A stretch of DNA of 34,689 nt from IMG/VR virus record IMGVR_UViG_3300024520_000266, positions 1 through 34,689 of that record; one strand, 5' to 3'. Below are positions 1 to 32,732 of the stretch, in pieces. Position 1 is the first letter of the stretch, and each line of letters begins with the position of its first letter. Below the pieces are notes generated by a model. It was given only the letters and a program-made list of their open reading frames with translations, did no database searches and was not told where the DNA came from. Both the position numbers and the translations under genes were made by a program. The stretch comes from a virus (taxonomy: Duplodnaviria; Caudoviricetes).

Positions 1-2
1 TT

Positions 3-338
3 CGCAAGCCTCTCTAACCTGACGAGACGATCCTGAATTTCGGCAAATAACTTGCGGTCTATTTCTTCTCGGGCATCGTCCATTTTCATTCGCTCAGCGA
101 TGAGCTGGATTGCTGTTGCGTTGCTCGTACTGCTTGCCTCGTATGAGGCGGCACTGACGCGGACCAGCACCTTGAGTTCGGAAACCTCCATCGATAGGTG
201 GGTCACATCAGACGACAACACTGCCGCCCGCCAGACTCCGGTAATTGTGGCCGCTAGGATCACGCCGACCAGAGCGATGCTGATCGCGGTCTGCTGGGTC
301 AATATCCGTTTCTCAGGCGTGTCGGTTCGAGCTGTCAT
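3..338 (-). CDS. membrane-anchored coiled-coil protein, truncated by the window edge (holin/spanin-like position)
   Basis: Not in the ORF track. Read manually from ATG at 338: MTARTDTPEKRILTQQTAISIALVGVILAATITGVWRAAV...DRLVRLERLA, open to the edge. One N-terminal TM helix then heptad-like sequence; starts just after the stop of the 340-531 gene. Confidence 0.7.
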   Translation of the reverse strand, partial: MTARTDTPEKRILTQQTAISIALVGVILAATITGVWRAAVLSSDVTHLSMEVSELKVLVRVSAASYEASSTSNATAIQLIAERMKMDDAREEIDRKLFAEIQDRLVRLERLA

Positions 339-1526: not shown

Positions 1527-2215
1527 GGCTTGCGGACCTCCGCGACGATTGCGTCGGACGTGGAAGGCATCGGGAGTGCGCGGGCGACGCTAGTGCCGTC
1601 CAGAAGGACCAACGCGGGCAAGCCTATTTCTGCGGCCCTCTCAACAGCCAGCTCAAGAAAGGCCGGCGGCGTTGACCCTTCGCCGGCGGCCATGAAAAAA
1701 ACACTCTCACCGTCCTTCCGAAGTTGGCCGGTTGCGGCCTCGCCAGCAAGCGGAGGCCCGCTTGCCTTGTCGTACACAATGACAGCCGTCTTGACGCCCG
1801 GTGCGGGCTTCTCTGGATCTTTGACCGGGTCGACGGGAACGGTCCCAGTAACGGTCAATTGGGTGACGCTGGTCTTCTTGTCGAACACAACCTTGCTGTC
1901 TTCGGCCTTGGCCAGGAAGACTTCGAGTTCGATTTCATAGGTGCCGGGAGGCGCCCAAACGTGCAGCGTTCGTCCGTTATTGACCTCCCGACCCTTGGCC
2001 GGTCGCTCGACGTCCCAGTCAAACAGGGCGGACCATCCGTCCGGGATTTCGACGTCCGCTTCGATCACGATGGGCTCGAACGTGGCGGCCTCGATTCGGC
2101 CAGCGAGTGCGGCGGACTTGAGAGGGCGGGCATCTTGATTCGCCCACAGAAACGGGGCGACGAAGACCGTGCCAGCAAGCAACAAGCCGACCGATGTGCG
2201 TGGTTCGCATCGCAT
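1523..2215 (-). CDS. exported/membrane-anchored protein: beta-rich (PKD/Ig-like) domain, Pro-rich linker, thioredoxin-like-fold C-terminus
   Basis: Hydrophobic N-terminus; HVWAPPGTYEIEL beta motif; PVDPVKDPEKP linker; GLPALVLLDG end; ATGA-coupled to the peptidase gene. Confidence 0.55.
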   Translation of the reverse strand: MRCEPRTSVGLLLAGTVFVAPFLWANQDARPLKSAALAGRIEAATFEPIVIEADVEIPDGWSALFDWDVERPAKGREVNNGRTLHVWAPPGTYEIELEVFLAKAEDSKVVFDKKTSVTQLTVTGTVPVDPVKDPEKPAPGVKTAVIVYDKASGPPLAGEAATGQLRKDGESVFFMAAGEGSTPPAFLELAVERAAEIGLPALVLLDGTSVARALPMPSTSDAIVAEVRKP

Positions 2216-2219
2216 GGTC

Positions 2220-2525
2220 CTACCCGCCTTCCCGCATCAGCCCATCATCGTCAACGAAGAACCCGTCGATGGCGTCGTGGATAGCGGCTAGCGCTTGCTT
2301 CTCCAGTCGCTTTTCGATGAACTCGGGAATCCAAGGGATGTCGTAAGGCACAACCGTTGATTCCCAGACCGAGTCGACGCATTGCGTCACGAGGTCGGCG
2401 TCAACGCCCTCTCGCAACGCTTCGAGAACGGTTTGCAGCATGTTTGACGCCTTCGCCATCGGATCGCTTGTCGTTCGATCCTCGATAGATGCCGCCATTG
2501 CGGCTTGTAGTTTCTCGCGTGTCAT
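2220..2525 (-). CDS. hypothetical protein
   Basis: 101-aa ORF with GGAG RBS (GGAGCGAACCAAATG), tightly packed in the operon. Confidence 0.75.
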   Translation of the reverse strand: MTREKLQAAMAASIEDRTTSDPMAKASNMLQTVLEALREGVDADLVTQCVDSVWESTVVPYDIPWIPEFIEKRLEKQALAAIHDAIDGFFVDDDGLMREGG

Positions 2526-2611
2526 TTGGTTCGCTCCGATAGTGGGCCGGAAGGGTCGGGGCCCGTGCGCGACTGGCCTGCGGTCGCGTGGGCTGCCGCG
2601 TGTGCGGCGTG

Positions 2612-3283
2612 TTATGGGTAGCCGAGCCAGCTTTCACGGACTGCGGGCGGGGCCGACGGTGGCGGCGTGGCGGCAATTATCGACTCTCGGACTTCGGAAA
2701 CCTCCGCGACCCATCCCCCGGTTTTTGTCTTCTGGATCTTATCAATCTTGAATTTTGTGTCTCTGGGAAATAGAACCTCAGATTCTCCGGGATTATTCGA
2801 GATGTTAGAAATGTCAACGCCGGTTTTGCCTTCGATTCTCATTACAAGCGAATCGGGAACGACTGCCTTGTCTACGAACGCCGCCCGCGTTGTCAGGTCT
2901 GGCTTCTTTCTCGATGACGAAAATGCGGAATCTGAAATCACTCCGCCGACTTTCAGGTTTGACACCATATCAGGCGGAACCGACCCGATTGTCCGAAATG
3001 ACGACCCGTCGAACTTTGGGGCGCGATCTAGGGCGTCGTCCATCGCTGATACAATTTTGTCCGTGCTCGCGGATGTTTCTTTGCTCCGAAGTTCACTGTT
3101 TATTGTCTGAAATTGATCGCCCGAGTAATCCTGAATGGAGTTCGTCTGTGTCTTTGTTAGCTTTCTTGGTTTCGGTGACGAACCGCCCCCTCCACCCTTC
3201 GCACAAGTGTTGCCCGACTTGAACCCGCCTTCGCCCGTTCCGCAATCCTCGCCTACGGCGACCGCCGTTTTTTTAGGATGTGC
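2612..3283 (-). CDS. ADP-ribosyltransferase domain (VIP2/Alt-like, R-S-ExE class), in frame with the portal beyond a single UGA
   Basis: Frame is open from 3283 to 2612: AHPKKTAVAVGEDCGTGEGGFKSGNTCAKG...LTKTQTNSIQDYSGDQFQTINSELR...SFRTIG...AFSSS...GESEVLFPRDTKFKI. The first in-frame ATG/GTG/TTG (3043) lies inside the domain. Confidence 0.8.
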   Translation of the reverse strand, partial: AHPKKTAVAVGEDCGTGEGGFKSGNTCAKGGGGGSSPKPRKLTKTQTNSIQDYSGDQFQTINSELRSKETSASTDKIVSAMDDALDRAPKFDGSSFRTIGSVPPDMVSNLKVGGVISDSAFSSSRKKPDLTTRAAFVDKAVVPDSLVMRIEGKTGVDISNISNNPGESEVLFPRDTKFKIDKIQKTKTGGWVAEVSEVRESIIAATPPPSAPPAVRESWLGYP

Positions 3284-5119
3284 TCAAAGGTGCATCTCTA
3301 AGAATGACTCTTCCACTTCTGCCGGGGGCTCGCGGCCAACCTGGCCTACGCCTGTCAGTTCTCGGGCCTCGTCCATCGGGATTTTTAGGAACATGGCCAG
3401 CGCTTGGGCTCCCTGCTCAGGTGTCATGGAGCCGTCTCGGATGGCGTCGAGCACGGTGACGGTTCCGGTCATGCCGCCGACCTTGTCAGTCAGCCCGCCA
3501 CCACCGGCTTGACTTGGCGCCTTCCCGCCCGCGCCCGGCTGGCCCGTCGCGAACGGAGACGCGCCGGTCGGCTTCGCGCCCTTCCGTTGCTCTTCGGCCA
3601 GCTCGCGGCCAACCTCGGCGGCCCATGTATCAAGCGACAAGATCCCAGCGGCGTGCTCGCCTTGCTTGATCGTGTGATCCTCGGCGCGATTCCTGACGGC
3701 TACTTCCGGCGTGTCGACGGTGAGCTGAACGCGCCGCTTGATCTTGGACAGCGAGACGTTGCCAAACAGTCCTGTCCGCTTGGCGACGATGCCAACGGCC
3801 TTCCATTTTATTTCGCGGTATTTGCGAGAGTACACAGACTGCCGGGCTTCGGTCGCCTTCGTGAACGGCGCCTCGGCAACCAGCGTGGAGGCGAAGTTGC
3901 CATTTGACGCATCGCCGCTGATCATGTATTCGGGCATCGCCCAACGGATGCCAACCATTCGCATGGCGGCTTGGACGACCTCGACGAATCGCGGACCGTT
4001 GGGCGAACCCATCGGGCCCGCCTGATACTTGGTTCCGGCGGTCACGTCGTGGATTTCGCCGGGTTTGGCGTTGCGGATGTTCCGGGTGTTCTGGCCGCCT
4101 CGGTCGGTCGTCTCGGTGATGGTCTTGGTTGCTGCTCCGACGACCATGTCCGAGATGGCGTCGGAGGTCGTCCCCATTGCATGCTCGCGGATGTATGCGA
4201 TAGCGGCTTGGCCTGCGGCTCCCTCAAGCGTGTTGCCCAATAGCTTCTCGCCACGGGTTAGGTTGCCGTGAACGGCGTAATAGTCCGACAATCCGCGTTT
4301 CACTTCGGGCGCGACGTTGAGCTTCAGGTGGACCATTGATTCGGGCGGTATGACATTCCAGTCGTTCGCGTCGCCGTTCCATTCTGCGAAGTAGGCGTGG
4401 ACGCGGGTTGGGTCGCCTTGGTCCGCCGCGACGCCATACTTCCATTCGAGCCCGGTTGGCAATCCAGCGTATTCCTCGACGCCTTGCCGGTTGTCGGGCT
4501 CGGTGATGAAGCAGGGATCGACTTGGCGTAAGCTGACATTGGAGCCGCCGCGATGAGTCAGGCAGGCGAAGAACTCGCCATCCTGGCGCGACCGTTCGAA
4601 CAACGACCGCTCGCCGTCTTCCGCGAATCCGTTGGCCTCGTCGAAGTTGTCGCTGATCCGCTGGCAGAGTTCGGCCCACTTGCGGGCCTCGGTGTCGTCC
4701 TCATCCTTGGCCGCGAACGAATAGCCGAACCCGTCGCCAATCGTGTAGTTGGTCAGATTCTCAAGGGCGGCGAGCGCGACTTCGGACCGCGACGCGACGA
4801 GTCGGGCTTGACCGATGATCGTTCTGTGCTCGGCCTCGGATTGCCAAAACGGGAAGTTGTCGCCGAAGCGTCGGTCGGTCGGGCGGGCGATCCCAGTGGC
4901 GACTGAGTCACCAAAGTAACTCATGCCCGCGCCGTCTCGGAATGGTTCGTCGATTGGGACTTCATCGCCCCAGCCTTCGCGAACGCGCCGACCACCAACG
5001 AATGACTCAGCCATTTTCATCGCGTGCGTTTGGGCCTTGAGCGTCGCGAGGTCGCTTTCCAGTTTCGCAGCCTCGACAAGTTCGCGGAGTCGGTCCAGAT
5101 CAAGGGCGGCGGTTGTCAT
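3284..5119 (-). CDS. portal protein
   Basis: 611 aa, downstream of the large terminase; QDGEFF and ISGDASNGNFAST motifs typical of portals; low-complexity C-terminal tail. Confidence 0.85.
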   Translation of the reverse strand: MTTAALDLDRLRELVEAAKLESDLATLKAQTHAMKMAESFVGGRRVREGWGDEVPIDEPFRDGAGMSYFGDSVATGIARPTDRRFGDNFPFWQSEAEHRTIIGQARLVASRSEVALAALENLTNYTIGDGFGYSFAAKDEDDTEARKWAELCQRISDNFDEANGFAEDGERSLFERSRQDGEFFACLTHRGGSNVSLRQVDPCFITEPDNRQGVEEYAGLPTGLEWKYGVAADQGDPTRVHAYFAEWNGDANDWNVIPPESMVHLKLNVAPEVKRGLSDYYAVHGNLTRGEKLLGNTLEGAAGQAAIAYIREHAMGTTSDAISDMVVGAATKTITETTDRGGQNTRNIRNAKPGEIHDVTAGTKYQAGPMGSPNGPRFVEVVQAAMRMVGIRWAMPEYMISGDASNGNFASTLVAEAPFTKATEARQSVYSRKYREIKWKAVGIVAKRTGLFGNVSLSKIKRRVQLTVDTPEVAVRNRAEDHTIKQGEHAAGILSLDTWAAEVGRELAEEQRKGAKPTGASPFATGQPGAGGKAPSQAGGGGLTDKVGGMTGTVTVLDAIRDGSMTPEQGAQALAMFLKIPMDEARELTGVGQVGREPPAEVEESFLEMHL

Positions 5120-5144
5120 TTAAGCGCGCTCCGAAGACAAAATG

Positions 5145-5178
5145 GAAGCGGCCCCAGCTATGGGACCAGGGCCGCTTC
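5145..5178 (-). other. GC-rich hairpin in the portal leader
   Basis: GAAGCGGCCC (5145-5154) pairs with GGGCCGCTTC (5169-5178); followed on the minus strand by CATTTTGT. Confidence 0.55.
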
Positions 5179-5199
5179 GGAAACCTCCGACCAGCACAA

Positions 5200-5229
5200 A
5201 GGGTGGTTCGTCGGTTCGCTGTTTGTCAA
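5200..5229 (-). promoter_or_regulatory. putative late promoter TTGACA-N18-CACCCT upstream of the portal
   Basis: Minus strand TTGACA aacagcgaaccgacgaac CACCCT; same architecture as the element at 10028-10057. Confidence 0.55.
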
Positions 5230-5390
5230 GCGTCGCCGTCTTTTGGCGGAATCGAGATTCTCACATACTTAACGACTGACCAGCGAGAGACGCCCGTCAG
5301 TCGGGCTATTTCACTGAGCGATTTTCCCTGAGCTTTGAGCCTCCGAATCGTCTTGACGAGGTGTTCGGGTATCGGTCGGCCTGAGGTCAT
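5226..5390 (-). CDS. small helix-turn-helix DNA-binding protein (54 aa)
   Basis: Below the ORF-track cutoff. Manual translation MTSGRPIPEHLVKTIRRLKAQGKSLSEIARLTGVSRWSVVKYVRISIPPKDGDA; resolvase-type HTH pattern; GAAGGGGG RBS. Confidence 0.75.
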   Translation of the reverse strand: MTSGRPIPEHLVKTIRRLKAQGKSLSEIARLTGVSRWSVVKYVRISIPPKDGDA

Positions 5391-5733
5391 CGTCGCCCCC
5401 TTCGTTGAGTTGCGGATTCTGGGCCGCGTGAAGTTTGTTCTGTAGGTCCATTGCTAACTCGACCGCAAGGTCAACAGGGCCAGCGTCGTCCAAGTCGGTC
5501 GACCATCCCGAGCGAATCAGCGCGACGAGTATTTGACGCGCCGACCGTTCGACCCTCGATTCGCCTCCTAAGCAAATGGGCTTGATGGCGCCGGGCGACT
5601 GGTGGACGATCCAGTGCGGGTCGGCAATCGGCCCGGACAGATACGTCGGCGCTTCGAGTTGCATCGAGTTCGGGTTGATTATCGAGGACGCGCCGCCTTG
5701 CAATCCGTTGTAGCCTTTGGGGTTTCCGCCCAT
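5311..5733 (-). CDS. hypothetical protein
   Basis: 140-aa ORF with GGAGCGAACCAAATG start context; 3' end overlaps the HTH gene. Confidence 0.65.
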   Translation of the reverse strand: MGGNPKGYNGLQGGASSIINPNSMQLEAPTYLSGPIADPHWIVHQSPGAIKPICLGGESRVERSARQILVALIRSGWSTDLDDAGPVDLAVELAMDLQNKLHAAQNPQLNEGGDDDLRPTDTRTPRQDDSEAQSSGKIAQ

Positions 5734-5978: not shown

Positions 5979-7346
5979 TCATTGGTGTTGAGCCAAGTGA
6001 TTCAAAAGCCGATGGGCCATTTCGAGCGCGTCGGGTCCGTCATCATGGTCGGCCTGGGGGAATCCTTTCAGTTGCTTGACTAGCAAGTGAGTCGAAGCGT
6101 TCGCCCGAAAGCGGAACGCGTGACGCCCAAGATACGGGCCAAGGCGGGCAATCCGCAAGCCTTTGTTGATGTTGTTGTTGAGCAACGCCAGAGGCAACGG
6201 GGCCCCGCCCCGGGTGCGGATCTTATTTTCGATGATCGGCGCGAGCAGGTCTTGGAACGCGTTGGACTCGATGCCGACGCGGTCACTCGGGTGCGTATCG
6301 CAGAACCCGATCAGGTTGTCCGTCAATTGATCCGCTGGCCAACGGCCGAGAAGCGAGTCGACCCAGAGCAAGCCCCGCGCGAGGCCAAGAAACACTATCG
6401 CCGCGTAGTCGCTCCGGGTGTTCGCGCCCTTGGACGGGTCTAGCGCGATGGCCGAGAACTCGAATCGGTCGGGCCATTCGATGCCGTCGCACCAAAACGG
6501 GTCTTGGAAGTAATCGTCGGGCCATTCGCTTCGACCGTACTGGGTTGGCCGCCCCTGGTACAACGCGTTCCACCAATAGTCCTCAGTCAGCGACTTCTTC
6601 TGCAGCAACGATTCGATGGGCCAGCGGTCGGGCCAGAGCGCCTCGCCGGGCTCGCGGCCAAGGATGTCGTCCGCTTCTGCGATGGCGGGGAAGCTGAGCC
6701 GCTTGACTTTCATGCCGTCGAGTTCGTTGGCTTCGGCCGCCTCAAGCACTCGCCCGATCAAGTCTTCTTCGTGCCATCGGGTCATCATCAGCACACAGAC
6801 GCCGCCCGGTTCGAGACGCGAGAACGCCGTCGACTGGAACCACTCCCACTGCTTCTCCCGTTGGGCCTCGCTGACCGCCATCTCGGCGTTCTTGATCGGG
6901 TCGTCGATGACCAGCAGGTTGGCCCCGCGTCCGGTCAACGGACCGCCAACGCCCGCCGTGACCATCCCGCCGCCATGCTCGGCAACCTCCCAATCGGACG
7001 CCGCCGAGACGTTCGGGTTGACGCCAGGGACGTCGAACCAGTTGGCCCGCTCGATCAGCAGGTCGCGGCATCGGCGTCCGAACTGGGACGCCAGAGCGTC
7101 GGCGTAGGACGTGAGAATCACCCGCTTCGTCGGCCACTTGCCCAGGTACCATGTCGGGAGGTACTTGGAAATCAGCTCGGACTTGCCGTGCCTTGGCGGG
7201 GCCTCGATGACGAGGATGTTGTGATCGGTGTGGCCCATCGCGAGCGTGGTCAGTTCGTCGTCGATCACAAGCAGATGGGGCGCGGCGTGCCACTCGGGCA
7301 ACTGCTCTGGCTCACCCGGTCGGCTAATCGGGATCGACGCCTCCAT
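5979..7346 (-). CDS. terL: terminase large subunit
   Basis: Walker A EAPPRHGKS, GVGGPLTGRGA, Walker B LLVIDDP, MTRWHEED, nuclease ALDPS and DDGPD. Start at 7346 (MEASIP) preferred over 7562, which overlaps terS extensively. Confidence 0.93.
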   Translation of the reverse strand: MEASIPISRPGEPEQLPEWHAAPHLLVIDDELTTLAMGHTDHNILVIEAPPRHGKSELISKYLPTWYLGKWPTKRVILTSYADALASQFGRRCRDLLIERANWFDVPGVNPNVSAASDWEVAEHGGGMVTAGVGGPLTGRGANLLVIDDPIKNAEMAVSEAQREKQWEWFQSTAFSRLEPGGVCVLMMTRWHEEDLIGRVLEAAEANELDGMKVKRLSFPAIAEADDILGREPGEALWPDRWPIESLLQKKSLTEDYWWNALYQGRPTQYGRSEWPDDYFQDPFWCDGIEWPDRFEFSAIALDPSKGANTRSDYAAIVFLGLARGLLWVDSLLGRWPADQLTDNLIGFCDTHPSDRVGIESNAFQDLLAPIIENKIRTRGGAPLPLALLNNNINKGLRIARLGPYLGRHAFRFRANASTHLLVKQLKGFPQADHDDGPDALEMAHRLLNHLAQHQ

Positions 7347-7854
7347 CGCGAAGGCGGCGGGCGTTCCGACTCGCAGCTTCAGATCGAACGAATCGAGCCC
7401 ATCTTGGGTCTTGTTCGAGGATGTCGAGTTCGTCGCGGATTCCGACGGTGCCGCTGACTTCGACTTGGGCTTGGACCGCAAGCTCTTGGCGTTCAATGTA
7501 GCCCCGATCCTTGGCTTGGCATTTGAGGTAAAAACAGACGGCCCACGCGTCGCCCTTGCCAATCGCTTTCATCAAAGAAGCCTCGGCGAAGTCCTTGGTC
7601 GCTTCGCGCTCGTCGTGCAACGCTTGGCGGATTTCTTCGTGGTCTTCCATTCGCTTATAGATCGCGCGGCCCGACATTCCCAACCGTCGAGCGGCGGTAC
7701 TGACGAGGCCCCGCGAATGTTGCAAGGCCGCGATGATCTCCGCGTTGGTCGCCTTCTGGCGGATGTGCGTGCCGTCGGCGTAATAGCCGGGCGTCTCGGC
7801 GGGCTGGGTCCGCTTCGGTGGCGGCTTGGTCTTGGCTCTCTTTCGCTTCGCCAT
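7324..7854 (-). CDS. terS: terminase small subunit (HTH)
   Basis: IIAALQHSRGLVSTAARRLGMSGRAIY HTH; AEASLMKAI...AVCFYLK...DRGY motif; directly upstream of terL. Confidence 0.8.
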   Translation of the reverse strand: MAKRKRAKTKPPPKRTQPAETPGYYADGTHIRQKATNAEIIAALQHSRGLVSTAARRLGMSGRAIYKRMEDHEEIRQALHDEREATKDFAEASLMKAIGKGDAWAVCFYLKCQAKDRGYIERQELAVQAQVEVSGTVGIRDELDILEQDPRWARFVRSEAASRNARRLRDGGVDPD

Positions 7855-7860
7855 TCGAGT

Positions 7861-8901
7861 TCATGCCCCAATCTTCGACAAGATGTTATCGCGAACGGCT
7901 TCGGCAATCGCTCGCATCATCAGCGGCGGCACGCTGTTCCCGAGTCGTTCCCATTGCTGGCCGTACTTGCCCGTCAGGACGAAATCGGCAGGAAATGAAC
8001 AGATCGCCTTGAGCTCATTAATTGTAAATCGCCTCGGATCGTCAGGATGCGTTAATCCCGTTCCACTCGGGCCAATGATTGTCGGTGCGGGCTGTCCCCA
8101 GTCGCACCGGGCAAGTGAAAAATATGTTTTGCTTGTCTTGCCTCTTGGCGTATTTTTCCATGCTTCCAATACTTTCGGTCCGAGATTGACACCACCTGAC
8201 ACTACAGATTCAACATGCCTAACAGAATCGCCAAGACTGTAGCAATAGTTCAGCGGCTTTGGAAAACTCGGACTAAACGGAAGGTCGTTTCGGACTCCCT
8301 GAAATATCACGCGCTTGCGGACTTGCGGCACGCCGAGCCATTGGGCGTCAAGCAACTGGCACTCGACCCGATAGCCGCACTTTTTCAGTCGGTCAAGGAT
8401 CTCAAGAAAGAAACCCTTGGCGGTCCCCTTGACTAACCCGCTCACATTTTCAGCGATGAATACCTTGGGTTGCAGTCCATCAAGAAGTCGAATGTAATCG
8501 AAAAACAACTCTTCGTTACACTGGCTCGCCCCGTGTTCGTATTTCTTTTTCTGACCCCAACCTTTGTCACGCTTACCAGCCGTCGAGAATGCTTGGCATG
8601 GCGGAGAACCATCGAACAGATCCAAGCCGCCGCGGTCAAGCTCGCATCGCTCGAGAATTTCCGCTGGTTCGATGTTCCGAATGTCTCGCTTGTCCAGATA
8701 CGAACATTCCGTCGTGTTCGCTTCATATGACTCCTGCGCCGCCGGAACGAACTCATTAGCCCAGACCACTCGAAACCCGGCCATTCGATAGCCCGTACAC
8801 GAACCGCCAGCGCCGCTAAACGTCGAAGCGACCCGAAACCCATTCCACGGAATACCTCGAATTTCGGCCATTGTGGGCACTTTGTAAGGCGGCTTGCTCA
8901 T
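7861..8901 (-). CDS. DNA (cytosine-5)-methyltransferase
   Basis: Motifs I FSGAGG, IV GSPPCQAFS, VI ENV, VIII QVRKRVIF, IX RRFTINEL and X LGNSV. Start MSKPPY overlaps the upstream stop (ATGA). Confidence 0.93.
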   Translation of the reverse strand: MSKPPYKVPTMAEIRGIPWNGFRVASTFSGAGGSCTGYRMAGFRVVWANEFVPAAQESYEANTTECSYLDKRDIRNIEPAEILERCELDRGGLDLFDGSPPCQAFSTAGKRDKGWGQKKKYEHGASQCNEELFFDYIRLLDGLQPKVFIAENVSGLVKGTAKGFFLEILDRLKKCGYRVECQLLDAQWLGVPQVRKRVIFQGVRNDLPFSPSFPKPLNYCYSLGDSVRHVESVVSGGVNLGPKVLEAWKNTPRGKTSKTYFSLARCDWGQPAPTIIGPSGTGLTHPDDPRRFTINELKAICSFPADFVLTGKYGQQWERLGNSVPPLMMRAIAEAVRDNILSKIGA

Positions 8902-9473
8902 GCTCCCCCGCTCCACTTATATCCGCACTTTGGGCATTCGTGTTCCGTGACAATGTCTTTATCGAAAGACGGGAACCCGTCTGGCGGTTCTGCCTCTGGG
9001 AACATCGCGTCTTCGGCTTGCTTCGACAGGTCCGCCAGAAGGTCATCGAGGCCCGGAAGCTCGCCGATGTCCTCGAGCAACGAATCGAGTCGTTCGCCTT
9101 GAACACCAGCCATTGCCGAAATCGGGTCATGGGTCGCGATGGCGACGTCCGATTCTTCGGGCGTGAAGTCGGTCACGTTGACCTCGACCTCGGCGTCCGG
9201 CCCGTACTCGGCGAGCAGCTTCGACCGTAGTTCGCCGTCGATCAGCATCACCTTGCCAGGGTGCTCTGGGTGCTCGAAGACGTCGGGGTAACCATAGAAT
9301 CCGATCTTGTCCACGACGGCTTGAAGCGTGCCTTGCTGGACCTCGTCGTGCGTTCGGAAGTTCTTTGGATTCGCGACGATGTCAGACACGCGAACCGTTC
9401 TGATTTCTTGGTTGCGACTCGCTGGGCCTGGGCTCGGCTTCGGTTTCTTCGTCGCTCGTTTTCGCTTCGCCAT
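8898..9473 (-). CDS. ParB/Srx-like N-terminal domain protein with C-terminal Zn knuckle
   Basis: VSDIVANPKNFRTH, LIDGELR, and CPKCG at the end. Start is 9473 or 9524. Confidence 0.75.
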   Translation of the reverse strand: MAKRKRATKKPKPSPGPASRNQEIRTVRVSDIVANPKNFRTHDEVQQGTLQAVVDKIGFYGYPDVFEHPEHPGKVMLIDGELRSKLLAEYGPDAEVEVNVTDFTPEESDVAIATHDPISAMAGVQGERLDSLLEDIGELPGLDDLLADLSKQAEDAMFPEAEPPDGFPSFDKDIVTEHECPKCGYKWSGGA

Positions 9474-11218: not shown

Positions 11219-11616
11219 TTGACGGCCCCCGCGACTAATGCCCGGACGCCCGCGCCTAGGATCATTGCAACGCCGACACAAACGGCGACAGACCCAGCAG
11301 CTAGGGTGCCCGCCAGAAGGCACGCGGCCCCGAACATGGCGACCACGACCCCGACTGACGCGATCACAACCGTGACACGTCGGTCCTTTCGTCGCTGTTG
11401 GTTCTCGCCGCTGTTGCGATATTGGACGCGGCGGTCAAGCCTTCGCCATACGTCGCCGCGAGGTCCGGGGTCTAGTTTGCGGCGATCCATGATCAGTTCG
11501 TCCTTCCTGGTTGGTTCGGGTTGCCGCTCGCTGAGTCGGCAGACGACGCACTCGCCGTCGTGAATGGTTGTATTTTCGGGCGGTTCGTTGCCGCAGGACC
11601 AGCATGTCGAGTTCAT
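11215..11616 (-). CDS. hypothetical protein with N-terminal CxxC...CxxC and C-terminal TM hairpin
   Basis: MNSTCWSC...CVVC followed by a long hydrophobic C-terminus; ATGA-coupled to rimI. Confidence 0.6.
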   Translation of the reverse strand: MNSTCWSCGNEPPENTTIHDGECVVCRLSERQPEPTRKDELIMDRRKLDPGPRGDVWRRLDRRVQYRNSGENQQRRKDRRVTVVIASVGVVVAMFGAACLLAGTLAAGSVAVCVGVAMILGAGVRALVAGAVK

Positions 11617-12059
11617 CGGGGGCGTAGCTCCATTTGATAGGCGTCGTCGATACACTCGGTATAATAATCTCGCAAGATTCCAGTCGCCCGGAAGCCTACC
11701 TTGCGGAAGAACAATTGCGCGTCGAGGTTGCTGTCACGCACCTCCACTACGGCCTTGTAGCGTCTTCGCGGGTTCAGCTTAGACTCAATCTTTTCGATCA
11801 ATGCGCGGCCCACCCCTTGGCCGTGGAACGCGGGCAAAACCGATAGGTTGAGGATATGCACCCTGTTTGCGTGCAATTCATAAATAACAACCCCGACAAC
11901 CCGCCCGGCATATTCCGCGACTAATCCGATTGAGTTTCGCTGCCGAAGGCATCGGATGAAGTCCTCCTCGGACCAGGGAAACTCGAAGTTTAAGGCGTCC
12001 ATTTCGACGACTTCTGGCATGTCTCGCCGAAGGCACCATCGGATGTAAAGATCATTCAT
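11613..12059 (-). CDS. rimI: RimI-like GNAT N-acetyltransferase
   Basis: FEFPWSEEDF, ILNLSVLPAFHGQGVG (acetyl-CoA motif), EVRDSNLDAQLFFRKVGF, RDYY...DAY. Confidence 0.9.
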   Translation of the reverse strand: MNDLYIRWCLRRDMPEVVEMDALNFEFPWSEEDFIRCLRQRNSIGLVAEYAGRVVGVVIYELHANRVHILNLSVLPAFHGQGVGRALIEKIESKLNPRRRYKAVVEVRDSNLDAQLFFRKVGFRATGILRDYYTECIDDAYQMELRPR

Positions 12060-21551: not shown

Positions 21552-22808
21552 CTAGCCGACAAGGTCAAGCTCAGCCTGTTTGAGGTACGCGTCCCAAGCC
21601 TTGTGGAACGTCTCAACATCTAAATGCTTTAGAGCTGCCCTTTTCGCGCGTCGCGCGACCTCGACGCCTTCCGACGATTTGGCCCGCTTGATCAGCTCGG
21701 CGAGCGTGGCGGCCCGTTTGCCGTCCCATACGAAACAGACGTCGCCCCACCGCTTGCGGGCCGTATACGCGATCCCAGTGGCTCGTGTAACCGCTGGTAC
21801 TCCGGCCATCCACGCTTCGACCAACGACTGATTAAAGCCTTCGTGCGGGGCCGTGCTGACCATCACATCCATCGCCCGCAGAGGGACTGAGACGTCGGCC
21901 TGTGATTTGACCAACCGAACCCACGGGCACGCCGCCTTGGCCTGGGCCTTGACCTCTTTCGCATTCCAGCCGCCGCCGATCATCACCGGGACGAAATCGG
22001 GGCCGAGCTTCCGGCACGCCTTGGCCGCCGCGATGGGGTCTTTGTCGGGGGCGAATCGGCCCATGTAGCCGACGACGTGCTTGGCGTCTTGGGGAATCCC
22101 CAGTTTCCGCCGGGCGGCTTTCTTCGTCATCGAGGTGCGAACGCGGGCAGGATCGACGCCGTTATGGATCACCGTCGCGTCGCCAGTCGGGAATGGCTTG
22201 ACCGCCAGTTCCGAAACCGCGACGTTGTGCGTCGCGAATGCGGCGACCGCCTCAAGGCTATCTTTTGTCCACTGATCGGCGCCATGACTTACCGAAATTA
22301 TGGGACCGTGAAAACCCCAACCAGCCTGGATCGTCCGCGCGCCCGAGATGATCAACGTATCGGAATGGTTCGCGAGCAACTCCGACGAACCGGGCCCGAC
22401 CATTAGGCGTGTTCCGACTTGGGTGATTCGCTGAGTCACTGTCTTGATGCCGCTGATGTTATTATTCTCAACCGCCACGCCCGAGAATTGTCGGTTCGGG
22501 TTGCGGATCATCGCTTGGACCCACGTTTCGAGCCCGCCGGGGAAGTCGCACGAACCGAGAACCAAGCCAACGCCGCCAACCTTGAATCGGGGCGGGGTTG
22601 GCGGCTTGAGCGTTTGCGAGAAACGTCTGAAGAAGAACTGCGCGTCGGCGTCGCCCTCGCTTGCCAAGAAATGAAGCGCGCACAATTGCGGGCAAACGAC
22701 CGCCGCAAGCTCGTCAGGTTCGAGGCTACTCCAACCGGGCGGCAGGTCCAGTCGTCGCGACGCACTGCCGTACTTGGCCGCACGCTTAACCCAATCACGA
22801 AAGTGCAT
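21552..22808 (-). CDS. GT-B fold glycosyltransferase (GT4-like)
   Basis: GGLETWV, VIHNGVD, GYMGRFAPDKD and EGFNQSLVEAWMAGVP (EX7E) motifs. Confidence 0.88.
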   Translation of the reverse strand: MHFRDWVKRAAKYGSASRRLDLPPGWSSLEPDELAAVVCPQLCALHFLASEGDADAQFFFRRFSQTLKPPTPPRFKVGGVGLVLGSCDFPGGLETWVQAMIRNPNRQFSGVAVENNNISGIKTVTQRITQVGTRLMVGPGSSELLANHSDTLIISGARTIQAGWGFHGPIISVSHGADQWTKDSLEAVAAFATHNVAVSELAVKPFPTGDATVIHNGVDPARVRTSMTKKAARRKLGIPQDAKHVVGYMGRFAPDKDPIAAAKACRKLGPDFVPVMIGGGWNAKEVKAQAKAACPWVRLVKSQADVSVPLRAMDVMVSTAPHEGFNQSLVEAWMAGVPAVTRATGIAYTARKRWGDVCFVWDGKRAATLAELIKRAKSSEGVEVARRAKRAALKHLDVETFHKAWDAYLKQAELDLVG

Positions 22809-29966: not shown

Positions 29967-31907
29967 CTAGCCTCTGCGGTTCGGGAATTGGGCGCGTTGC
30001 TGGTCGGCGTGCTGTTGCGCCCGCCGGTCAAGGTCTTCGAGTCGTCGGTCAAACTCCAATTGTATCTTCCGTTCTAGCAATGCTTCGCGTTCTTTGAGTC
30101 TCGCGGCGACAATTTCGGCGACCTGCTTGGCGATTCGGTCTTCGTCGCGTTCGAGGTTGACTTGGATTTCGCGCTGGTCCCGGATTGCTACATCGAGTTT
30201 GCGTTCCTCCCGCTCCATTCCCGCGATGCGACGACGGCCCGCGCCTTCCATTTCGGCGAAGCCCGCACGCTCGGCCGCCCGGATGTCGCCAGCCCTCGCC
30301 GCTTGTTCGGTTTCTTGCGTGCCGACTCCCGCAAGCGTCCGCCGCTCTTCGCGGGTCAGAGAACCGATACCGCCCGCCTTTTGCTTCCTGAAAACTCTCA
30401 GCGTCTCTTGCTGCTCTTCCGCCGACAGTTGGCCGAACCGTTCCTTGGCCGAAAGGAGGCGATCTTTCTCCGCTTTTAGTCGGTCGCGGACGATGTCGCG
30501 TTCCGACTTGGCCGCGTTTATTGCCTTGGTCGCCGCGTCCCTTTTGACCTGCGACGCTTCTTTTTCGAGCGAAAGCCTGTCACTTGCCAACGTGGTCATT
30601 CGCTGATTGAGCGATAGAAGACGCTCGACGGCTTGTTGTTGGCGTTTTGGGTCGGTGGTCGTGGCGAGTTCTTCGCGTTCCGCACCTATGGCCGCGCCAC
30701 CAAGTTGGGCTTCTCGGTGCAATAGCTTCCGACGCTCTCCAGGGGTTCTGGCCTTTTCCCTCGCCCCCGCAGCCGCACCGAACTGGGCGTCGGATCGGGA
30801 ACGCTCGGCGGCTCGACCGGCTTCAGCGGTTTCTCGCTGCTTGAACTCCTCGACATCGCGACGGGATCGCCTCGCCTCGGCTTGCTCTTTCTCTATCTCG
30901 GCGATTTCGGCTTGAGCGGCACCCGCCCGAAACCTGCCGATATAGCCCGACTCACCCATCGCGGCACGTTCCCGAAGTTCTGGCGTTATAACACGGTGAC
31001 CGACTGGCCCGGTCTTGCCCGCGTTTCCCAATGCACGCTCGGCCGCGCTAACCAAATTGAACTCGGTCTGTATAATCTTGTTTGACAGAGAGTTCACATT
31101 ATTTGCCGCGCCGGTCATCTGCTCGACCACGACCCACGTTGCCGCCCCGAGTGCCGTGATTGCTGCCGTCGCCGCGAGTTGCACCCCGCCGCCGCCAACC
31201 GCTCCGCCAGCGCCAACCCTCGCAGCCGCCGACGCCTTGGCCGCCGCTGCCGACGTTCCGCGTGCGGCTGCGAGTTTTCCTTCGGCGACAGTCTCGGCGT
31301 TGACTTGAGCGATACTGGCCGCCCGTGCGGTCGATTCTACGGCCGATGCGGCTTGAACCGCCGACCGATACGCCAGGACGGCTTCGCGGATGTTCTTGTA
31401 GGACTCGGTCGCACCGACCGCCAAGTCCATCACAGCCTTGACCTTGATCAGCGAGCGCACCAGCTTCTCAGTGTTCTTTTCGCCCATCAGGCCGAGCATG
31501 ACGAAGCCGCCCGTCAACTGCGAAATCGAACCAGCCGACGCGGCAAAGCCAGAATGAAGGCGGCCACGCGCCCCCTCCAGCTTATCCATTGCCCGTTCGC
31601 TGTCGGCGGTCATCTTCTCAAGATGGCGCTTTGCGTCGACCCGTTCCTTCGCCCTCCGACGGGCGGCAGTCTTCTCGGCCGCCGCTTGCGACTGCTCTTT
31701 CTTCTTCTGGTGTGCGTCAAACGCTTTGAGCTGATCGTCGTAGCCCTTTTTGACGGTCTTGACTTCCGCGTCCGTCTTCTTGCGCGAACTCTTGAGCAGC
31801 GATTCGTGGGACTTCTTGACCTTATCCTCGAAGTCCTTGGACTTGGCCGCATTGTCCTTCGACGGCTCGACCTTCAGGGTCCATATAATATGCCGTTCGT
31901 TAGCCAC
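29967..31907 (-). CDS. tape measure protein
   Basis: 646 aa, Ala/Arg/Glu-rich and helical with hydrophobic stretches; directly after the chaperone pair. Confidence 0.8.
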   Translation of the reverse strand: MANERHIIWTLKVEPSKDNAAKSKDFEDKVKKSHESLLKSSRKKTDAEVKTVKKGYDDQLKAFDAHQKKKEQSQAAAEKTAARRRAKERVDAKRHLEKMTADSERAMDKLEGARGRLHSGFAASAGSISQLTGGFVMLGLMGEKNTEKLVRSLIKVKAVMDLAVGATESYKNIREAVLAYRSAVQAASAVESTARAASIAQVNAETVAEGKLAAARGTSAAAAKASAAARVGAGGAVGGGGVQLAATAAITALGAATWVVVEQMTGAANNVNSLSNKIIQTEFNLVSAAERALGNAGKTGPVGHRVITPELRERAAMGESGYIGRFRAGAAQAEIAEIEKEQAEARRSRRDVEEFKQRETAEAGRAAERSRSDAQFGAAAGAREKARTPGERRKLLHREAQLGGAAIGAEREELATTTDPKRQQQAVERLLSLNQRMTTLASDRLSLEKEASQVKRDAATKAINAAKSERDIVRDRLKAEKDRLLSAKERFGQLSAEEQQETLRVFRKQKAGGIGSLTREERRTLAGVGTQETEQAARAGDIRAAERAGFAEMEGAGRRRIAGMEREERKLDVAIRDQREIQVNLERDEDRIAKQVAEIVAARLKEREALLERKIQLEFDRRLEDLDRRAQQHADQQRAQFPNRRG

Positions 31908-32304
31908 GGTTTATCTTGCTTTCTATCGCTCGCGACACCGCGTTGGCGGCTCGCTTGCTTTCGTGCTGGCGGAACGTCGTATCAATAACGGCGAAGTTTG
32001 AACGGACAATCGGGTCAGAAGCGATATAGTCAGGAAGCCCGGCCCCCTTCATGGCGCGATGCTGCAAATACAACCGGACGGTTGCCCAGTTCTTCCGGCT
32101 TAGTTCGTATTGTTTCGCCTTCGCGGGCGATTCTTTCGGGCACTCGTGGCAAGGTGTGGGCTGACCTTTCGCGCGACGCTGACGGACGCCTCGACGCTCT
32201 GCAAACGTCCCGGTTTTCGGGTCGAAGATAAAGGCTTTGCATGTCTTGCAGTCCGTGTTCGCGACCTGCGGATGCTCAAGCAGCAACCGAAGGCCGCTGA
32301 TTAG
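31900..32304 (-). CDS. tail assembly chaperone gpT-like extension, reached by -1 frameshift
   Basis: The -1 frame is open from the slippery site: LISGLRLLLEHPQVANTDCKTC...CHEC. Confidence 0.75.
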   Translation of the reverse strand, partial: LISGLRLLLEHPQVANTDCKTCKAFIFDPKTGTFAERRGVRQRRAKGQPTPCHECPKESPAKAKQYELSRKNWATVRLYLQHRAMKGAGLPDYIASDPIVRSNFAVIDTTFRQHESKRAANAVSRAIESKINRG

Positions 32305-32732
32305 TTTTTTTCGTCGGCGTCCGTCGTGCTAACGGGCTCGCCACCTGCTTCGGCGATTATCGCGTCCGCATAATTCTTGCCCTCTTTGTCGGTCGCGCCG
32401 GGTCGAAGGTCTGTCGCTTGTTGGCCGGATATTATCATGTAGAGCCGATTAAAGGGGACATAGCCCAGGCGTCGCACGTTCTCGAACGTGATGGGAACGG
32501 CGGTCCCTTTGTCGTCGACCTCCGACCAATCGACCAAATGACGCTGAACTTGAGCGACAAACAAATGGACTGTTTTTTTGGAATCCGTCCGCCGGTTGAC
32601 TTCCGCGTCCGTCGCCTCGACGTCCTCGGGAAGCATCGGCCGGTAGCGGAATGACAATTCGTCGTGGAGCCCTTCCGCCGCCTCAATGTAGCCCTCAGTC
32701 GTGTAGCCGTCGTTGATGATGTTTCTCGACAT
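32301..32732 (-). CDS. tail assembly chaperone (gpG-like)
   Basis: 143 aa from MSRNII; LVDWSEVDDKGTAVPITFENV motif; between the tail tube and tape measure genes. Confidence 0.8.
   Translation of the reverse strand: MSRNIINDGYTTEGYIEAAEGLHDELSFRYRPMLPEDVEATDAEVNRRTDSKKTVHLFVAQVQRHLVDWSEVDDKGTAVPITFENVRRLGYVPFNRLYMIISGQQATDLRPGATDKEGKNYADAIIAEAGGEPVSTTDADEKN
32304..32310 (-). promoter_or_regulatory. -1 ribosomal frameshift heptamer A AAA AAC
   Basis: GAA AAA AAC TAA at the end of the chaperone gene; X XXY YYZ pattern in the correct phase. Confidence 0.85.

Follow-up and report, generated by a model that had tools for sequence, protein, structure and literature searches.

Why should the reading frame of a phage portal gene, once closed by a stop codon, run on through a complete enzyme domain? 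The question is raised by IMG/VR record IMGVR_UViG_3300024520_000266 (G000; hereafter the window, i.e., the whole stretch of 34,689 bases analysed), a partial phage genome with its genes on the minus strand, in which a portal open reading frame (ORF) sits after the terminase genes and ends CTT TGA GCA. An earlier note, made from the sequence alone, had recognised an ADP-ribosyltransferase (ART) behind this TGA and proposed that leaky readthrough places it on a minority of portal subunits. Here, we describe the portal tail as a cargo slot, a finding we regard as solid, and argue that the stop within it is most likely incidental.

The portal frame continues into an ADP-ribosyltransferase

Beyond the TGA, the portal frame stays open for 223 codons and closes at a TAA (2614-2612), so that the whole frame spans 835 residues; base shuffles of the stretch were stop-free in 1 of 20,000 cases. 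PF03496 matches residues 40-195 of the ART frame (E = 6e-16; 58.8 bits against a cut-off of 23.4), and the predicted structure (mean predicted local distance difference test score 85.8) has its best Foldseek match in the Serratia Tre1 ART (6dre, E = 9.5e-13), the best sequence match being Vibrio Vis (4xzj, E = 8.8e-10). Identity to these two is 22-24% and their delivery is different; their substrates are not transferable to the phage enzyme. Catalytic residues R97, S123, E167 and E169 are all present. In an alignment of 39 sequences, R97 and E169 are invariant, while Y53, N62 and L65 are nearly so. By sequence and predicted fold, the frame beyond the TGA encodes an R-S-ExE ADP-ribosyltransferase. 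The closest ART (P0135, 59%) is called from the same methionine as the window's.

Several details of the earlier note stand. The frame is open over the stated 223 codons, and the first ATG, GTG or TTG in it is the ATG at 3043, upstream of which lie the positions of Y53, N62 and L65; a start there would lose part of the domain, which supports the view that the ART lies in the portal frame with no usable start of its own. Regarding the catalytic motifs, R and E-x-E were read correctly, whereas the alignment replaces the proposed S-x-S with S123-S124-R125. As the nearest uninterrupted relatives have the same type of central motif (STR in P0122 and P0131, SSR in P0128), S-S-R is a subfamily trait and not decay.

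The TGA itself is well supported by contigs of five runs. Contigs of runs X1, X2 and X3, which are possible sources of the window, cover 2200-5400 without a difference at depths of 84, 65 and 29, and contigs of X4 (2698-3327) and X5 (3224-3374), neither flagged as a possible source, bridge the stop, also with 0 differences. This evidence consists of assembled contigs, in which rare alleles would not show, and not of raw reads.

A cargo cassette absent from a sister strain

A sister strain, found in L001, L002, P0001 and runs X6 and X8, has a 544-residue portal that is 98% identical and ART-free. Because its portal ends in the very tail that closes the ART frame of the window, the ART frame is, on this sequence comparison, the 3' end of the portal gene itself. 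The window differs by a cassette (Table 1) made up of a spacer module, a linker, a two-Cys motif and the ART, inserted before an end motif that is widespread in the family: 75 of 119 relatives end in YP, and 53 of those 75 have Trp at position -5. A quick tree built on 43 portal cores places the window among 28 ART-free portals, with 0.011 changes per site separating it from the sister; this suggests that the cassette was gained recently. Nucleotide mismatches cluster at the cassette flanks (10 within 94 nucleotides (nt) on one side and 7 within 54 nt on the other, compared with 12 over the 1,364 nt of the rest of the portal), a pattern that fits arrival by recombination. The suggestion that the cargo is swappable is upheld.

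The packaging module is mosaic in other respects as well, the terminase genes (5979-7833) being only ~85-90% identical to L001 where the portal core is ~99% identical.

Related portals and the distribution of the stop

Among 346 portal records examined, 19 carry an uninterrupted portal-ART fusion with Pfam support, and these form 13 clusters at 90% identity; in other relatives the same slot holds ART-PolyVal or unnamed cargo. We then surveyed portal ends. The 218 loci collapsed to 175 distinct ones, 18 of which run off their contig, leaving 157 with the stop in view. A stop followed by in-frame cargo occurs in 1 of these 157, the window's own record, and in none of the other 156, and no stop splits any portal core of the family. 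When 19 of 64 parts of the viral collection were scanned for the two-Cys motif and the hits pooled with the portal loci, 127 segments resulted, of which 59 were dropped because their 5' end was open; where the upstream stop was in view, cargo-motif segments had a start of their own in 66 of 68 cases, the exceptions being the window and L413. Two further scans of the whole collection for TGA-G or TGA-C shortly before the motif returned 110 loci and 80 segments with five in-frame, start-less rows. Four of these are chance matches and the fifth, L432 (the contig of L413), is a lambda-type portal without the hairpin described below. Searches for homologs found no relative with the same junction, the linkers of the uninterrupted fusions being unrelated, and tblastn of the portal against 50,697 phage records gave no match. 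On these comparisons, the stop is lineage-specific and not conserved in the family.

These surveys do not support readthrough as a conserved design, as the earlier note would have it, given 13 uninterrupted lineages and 0 of 156 other portal ends with stop and cargo. Homologs without the stop, which that note had named as evidence against its proposal, do exist (the 13 distinct lineages), and what it had listed as an alternative, a recent nonsense mutation, becomes the most likely reading with those lineages and no conserved stop. The host is probably a Planctomycete, since 44 of 55 genome records with related portals bear Planctomycetota names.

L432 deserves a description of its own. At 1-253 (minus strand) it holds a lambda-type portal with a two-Cys cargo module; there is a TGA in frame and a second module that lacks a start. 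An ATGA overlap and an A10 run are nearby, and no SECIS-like hairpin is present (SECIS, selenocysteine insertion sequence). Elsewhere in the family, comparison of P0128, L118, L149 and L154 with L074 and L085 reveals cargo added straight after the natural portal end motif, a second route beside insertion before the motif. A recurring portal-tail module (...GRMAAFARHRKN...WLGWGG...) in L004-L006, P0057 and P0059 sometimes lies upstream of an ART and has no Pfam match in P0057. The motif CGTGxGGFxxGNxC is repeated up to 6-7 times in very long phage proteins (P0138, P0148, P0157, P0174 and others), often behind Lys-Asn, Arg-Asp or Glu-Asp; it has no Pfam family in the proteins scanned and may mark cargo boundaries for different head proteases.

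Two other readings of the TGA were rejected. Genome-wide recoding of TGA is ruled out, as 16 other window genes end at TGA, many overlapping the next ATG. The TGA is likewise no leftover of the W-x-x-YP end motif of the family, with a profile score of -17.5 against at least 8.9 for true ends. The window, a partial genome, yielded no phage tRNA, neither a suppressor nor a selenocysteine-specific one.

A probable lineage-specific stop uncoupling the cargo

Cargo-free and stop-free forms are both common, and a recent stop uncoupling a dispensable cargo is therefore the simplest reading. We hold, with moderate confidence, that the UGA is a likely lineage-specific stop that uncouples the cargo, so that virions would contain mostly the plain 611-residue portal plus incidental read-through copies. 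Such a stop would be unselected. Its neat position needs no design, given that, of the 98 single-base changes that would create a stop in the cassette, 13 lie in this linker. Basal leak at UGA is about 1%, and on that assumption roughly one virion in nine would carry one cargo copy.

For the uninterrupted form found in the family, delivery can be pictured more fully. The portal C-terminus would point toward the prohead interior, as is known for T4, whose portal C-terminal fusions are located inside the prohead (PMC10893049). The prediction is that, during maturation, a gp21-like protease cleaves behind Glu residues to either side of the cargo; the freed ART would leave with the DNA into the host, where it would ADP-ribosylate host proteins on arginine, as T4 Alt does. 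T4 gp21, which cleaves behind L/I-X-E, shortens Alt from both ends, and the phage ejects Alt into its host (PMC9026906). Sites of the form h-x-E-[S/D/G] occur in the 835-residue frame at 36, 46, 165, 602, 622, 810 and 827, none of them inside the ART; ES makes up 0.19 of all Glu in portal tails against 0.06 in cores, and a Glu lies at most three residues before the cargo motif in 11 of the 14 fusions listed. The head protease gene is absent from the window, and that of the sister was used in its place: its structure matches the T4 gp21 fold (E = 3.9e-5), and its His and Ser are invariant among 62 homologs, while a sequence-profile search of the PDB and a Pfam search gave no match. Because Glu sites flank the cargo and the sister protease folds like gp21, cargo in this portal family is likely packed on the tail of the portal and then released by cleavage. 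Portal-borne effector delivery, part of the original proposal, finds support as the likely way of the family. In the sister (L001:8955-10912), four accessory genes and a nuclease-like gene lie between the portal and the MuF and protease-scaffold genes.

Several observations weigh against an incidental stop. The stop allele was assembled at depths of 84, 65 and 29 and is present in two further runs; the TGA is located exactly at a module boundary; and the ART has no second lesion over 223 codons, with R, S and ExE intact. Only 1 of the 17 TGA gene ends in the window, that of the portal, is followed by a SECIS-like hairpin of at least 5 bp. In addition, the tree came from a quick search and not a careful one, and no donor with the same junction was found that would date the stop or show an earlier sense codon.

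Possible selenocysteine insertion at the UGA

The hairpin invites a second explanation, in which host SelB acts on it to insert selenocysteine (Sec) at the UGA on some ribosomes, yielding mixed rings with the ART on some of the 12 subunits. We consider this unlikely. To the same degree, we doubt that the host selenocysteine machinery works as a dimmer, with the SECIS setting the share of ART-bearing subunits and the dose per virion tracking the selenium or SelB state; the role of Sec would here be confined to permitting readthrough, with no part in catalysis. The hairpin, absent from the earlier note, is the one positive sign for functional readthrough. Like E. coli fdhF, the window has an in-frame UGA, a lower stem at once behind it and a GGUC loop at 18-20 nt (an 18-nt spacer in the fdhF geometry). 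All five fdh elements of the likely host class (that of genome G003, titled Pirellulaceae) have C-GGUC-U with an 18-nt spacer, and 28 Sec-selD genes of this class have a [G/A]GUNN loop at 32 nt. The site passes a descriptor that admits 27 of 33 host-class SECIS and 194 of 36,784 background TGAs (0.53%); overall, our descriptors, built on the host-class elements, pass 27-28 of the 33 true elements and 0.5-1.5% of the same background, and 2 of 77 family portal TGAs pass the looser form. In the phylum to which G003 belongs, 150 of 201 genomes have SelA over the cut-off. Sec insertion at ~40% efficiency (PMC7026636) would give mixed rings, T4 proheads function with 4-6 gp20-GFP subunits per portal (PMC10893049), and an engineered UGA with SECIS is functional in M13 pIII (PMC9393631). 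Bacterial SECIS generally share a 5/6-bp hairpin and an invariant loop G (PMC4607533).

Several observations stand against this. The loop has 4 nt here and 5 nt in all 33 aligned host-class elements, and the descriptor was widened to loops of 4-5 nt only after the site had been seen. Removing the first 8-12 nt lowers the upper-stem probability from 0.97 to 0.00-0.27, with other folds winning; it is that low in only 2-5 of the 33 true elements, although in 2 of the 5 settings used the E. coli fdhF element collapsed too. When the codons of this peptide were re-drawn synonymously, the hairpin arose in 383 of 5,000 cases, and 81 of 928 TGAs in the window fold at least as well. On the plus strand, the same hairpin with its T run forms a terminator-like site (four such sites against a shuffle mean of 1.9). 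Rfam gave no SECIS match and three chance-level matches. We found no second gene with UGA and SECIS in the window and none in the portal cores of the family, SelB is over the cut-off in only 1 of 5 prophage-bearing genomes, and the homolog searches gave neither a Cys-bearing homolog for the UGA position nor a junction relative. Compared with fdhF, the window's UGA occupies a linker position without catalytic role, lacks a Cys homolog and conservation, and is followed by a weaker apical stem. A loose TGA...GGTC pattern, sought in six genomes, was too unspecific for use.

As an observation on the host class, the spacing of SECIS elements there (L230-L282) is either 18 nt, as in fdh, or 32 nt, as in selD, in both cases with 5-nt loops and G-U from the second base.

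Less probable alternatives: selected leakiness, frameshifting and other origins

The original proposal of leaky readthrough, taken here as a near-cognate leak in which ordinary tRNAs read the UGA at a few percent, aided by the 3' hairpin and favoured by selection for a few cargo copies per virion, appears rather improbable, somewhat more so than Sec insertion. It would account for the intact ART, the boundary position and the abundant allele, and it has a precedent in Q-beta, whose A1 is made at ~5%, 3' structures being able to stimulate readthrough (PMC7026636). A1 likewise couples a UGA with an in-frame extension on a multimeric virion protein; however, A1 is essential and its stop fixed (PMC7026636), whereas the relatives of the window lack either the stop or the cargo. 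No relative with this portal type conserves the stop or its context, the +4 base is G and not the C linked to leaky UGA (PMC7026636), and fusion on all subunits is tolerated in thirteen lineages. L432, another lambda-type portal with an in-frame TGA before a start-less cargo module, would count in favour of a selected leak, but it is one contig, the site is near the contig end, and the A10 run may hide an error.

Very improbable, in turn, is a route through other frames, either two slips, of +1 at CUU-UGA and then of -1 at A-AAA-AAA, or an overlapping TTG start with a +1 slip at UCC-UAA. The TGA is preceded by CTT, the +1 frame is open across the A run, and the coding strand has only three A7 runs, this one included, another lying at the tail-chaperone frameshift site. 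The arrangement resembles prfB and slippery heptamers. Yet two low-efficiency events would be required, there is no clear Shine-Dalgarno sequence before the TTG, whose frame closes after 4 codons, and these features were noticed after the fact. Of 29 inspected starts, 26 are ATG or GTG and none is TTG (the other rows being two windows offset by one base and one showing the stop side only). A TTG start broken by an indel, raised at the outset, fares poorly for a further reason: compared with the sister, the cassette adds whole codons only, and it runs into the C-terminus native to the portal.

The tail-assembly-chaperone gene of the window ends GAA AAA AAC TAA, followed by a hairpin and overlapped by an open frame (32301-32320 and 31900-32286, minus strand), as is usual for -1 frameshifting.

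That the ART is a separate small gene of 143 amino acids (aa) from the ATG at 3043, as gene callers have it (P0127, the sole called product), is highly improbable: the product would be without the helix holding the near-invariant Y53, N62 and L65, and the part upstream of the ATG is plainly coding and conserved. Finally, although the window is a single uncultured assembly, the contigs of five runs are identical at the TGA, two of them not flagged as its possible sources, and a sequencing or assembly error has next to no chance of being the explanation.

Comparison with known systems

T4 Alt, a protein of about 680 aa, is a stand-alone core protein, whereas the window's enzyme would be a 160-aa domain riding on the portal, with its cleavage and target predicted. 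The two systems are alike in having a head-packaged ART, a gp21-fold protease and h-x-E sites at both cargo ends (PMC9026906, PMC5512222). Phage ARTs of the Alt/VIP2 clade fused to head or portal proteins have been described in silico (PMC9503650), as have effector-portal fusions (PMC5512222). As in those fusions, an R-S-E ART is in frame with a portal in the packaging module, and packaging and injection are predicted. The window's cassette differs in its place of insertion, behind the portal core and ahead of a conserved end motif, and in that near-identical strains have or lack it; its cargo is Glu-flanked and cut off by an in-frame UGA rather than part of an uninterrupted polypeptide. MuF polymorphic toxins also pair a head-associated carrier with swappable C-terminal enzymes, 14% of the MuF ones being ARTs (PMC5576092). 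The carrier in the window is, by contrast, a portal (PF05136) without an N-terminal MuF domain, MuF being a separate gene in the sister, and no cassette-linked immunity gene lies downstream; the 101-aa ORF that follows is not one, because the ART-free sister has it too.

A literature search found no protease-bracketed cargo slot in Planctomycete phage portals, no readthrough of a portal gene and no natural Sec recoding in a virion gene, most subscription papers being beyond its reach; the architecture lists in the supplements of PMC9503650 and PMC5512222 may already hold these portal-ART fusions.

Our results show that, in these likely Planctomycete phages, the portal tail serves as a cargo slot in which Alt/VIP2 ART, ART-PolyVal and unnamed domains are placed between the core and the conserved end motif, and that such cassettes come and go even between strains with 98% identical portals. 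The Glu sites bracketing the cargo predict release by the head protease, and a dodecameric structural protein would thereby have a concrete means of bringing enzymes into the host. The window and its sister form a natural with/without strain pair. Should the SECIS prove to work, selenocysteine recoding would constitute a stoichiometry switch on a virion protein.

Features of the window

Table 1 Portal gene, cargo cassette and adjacent elements, in window coordinates.
Feature	Position	Strand	Basis
Portal ORF as called, 611 aa, lambda-family portal	5119..3284	-	PF05136 E 1.3e-15; phrog_21 E 1.6e-27
Portal core common to the window and the cassette-free sister	3565..5119	-	98% aa identity, residues 1-528, to L001/L002; 22 nt mismatches
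Cargo cassette, 890 nt vs 17 nt in the sister (net 873 nt = 291 codons, frame kept)	2675..3564	-	blastn breakpoints; joint 2674-3565 in X6, X8
Helical spacer module in the portal tail; weak relationship to the relatives' 'LNGAQ' module	3356..3466	-	domain E 5.9e-5 with a hidden Markov model built on 22 modules from relatives, searched against this single protein
In-frame TGA, codon 612, between spacer module and cargo	3284..3286	-	same in contigs of X1-X5
SECIS-like stem-loop: lower stem directly after the TGA, interior loop, 5-bp upper stem (3255-3268), GGUC loop 20 nt past the TGA	3242..3283	-	
A7 run (three in all on the coding strand); together with the hairpin of the preceding row, T run of a terminator-like site when read on the + strand	3268..3274	-	
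VGE-D predicted protease site, then two-Cys cargo-start motif CGTGxGGFxxGNxC, seen in many phage head-protein cargos	3203..3256	-	
Predicted ART domain, Alt/VIP2 (R-S-E) clade: Arg 2995-2993, Ser 2917-2915, Glu-x-Glu 2785-2777	2690..3163	-	PF03496, alignment, model
Native portal C-terminal tail, ends ES-W-x-x-YP stop, common to the sister's 544-aa portal	2612..2674	-	sister comparison
Next gene, 101 aa; present in the ART-free sister too	2220..2525	-	

Elsewhere in the window, all on the minus strand, are a C5 DNA methylase beside the terminase (7861-8916), a GNAT acetyltransferase (11613-12059) and, behind the tail genes, a GT4 glycosyltransferase (21552-22808).

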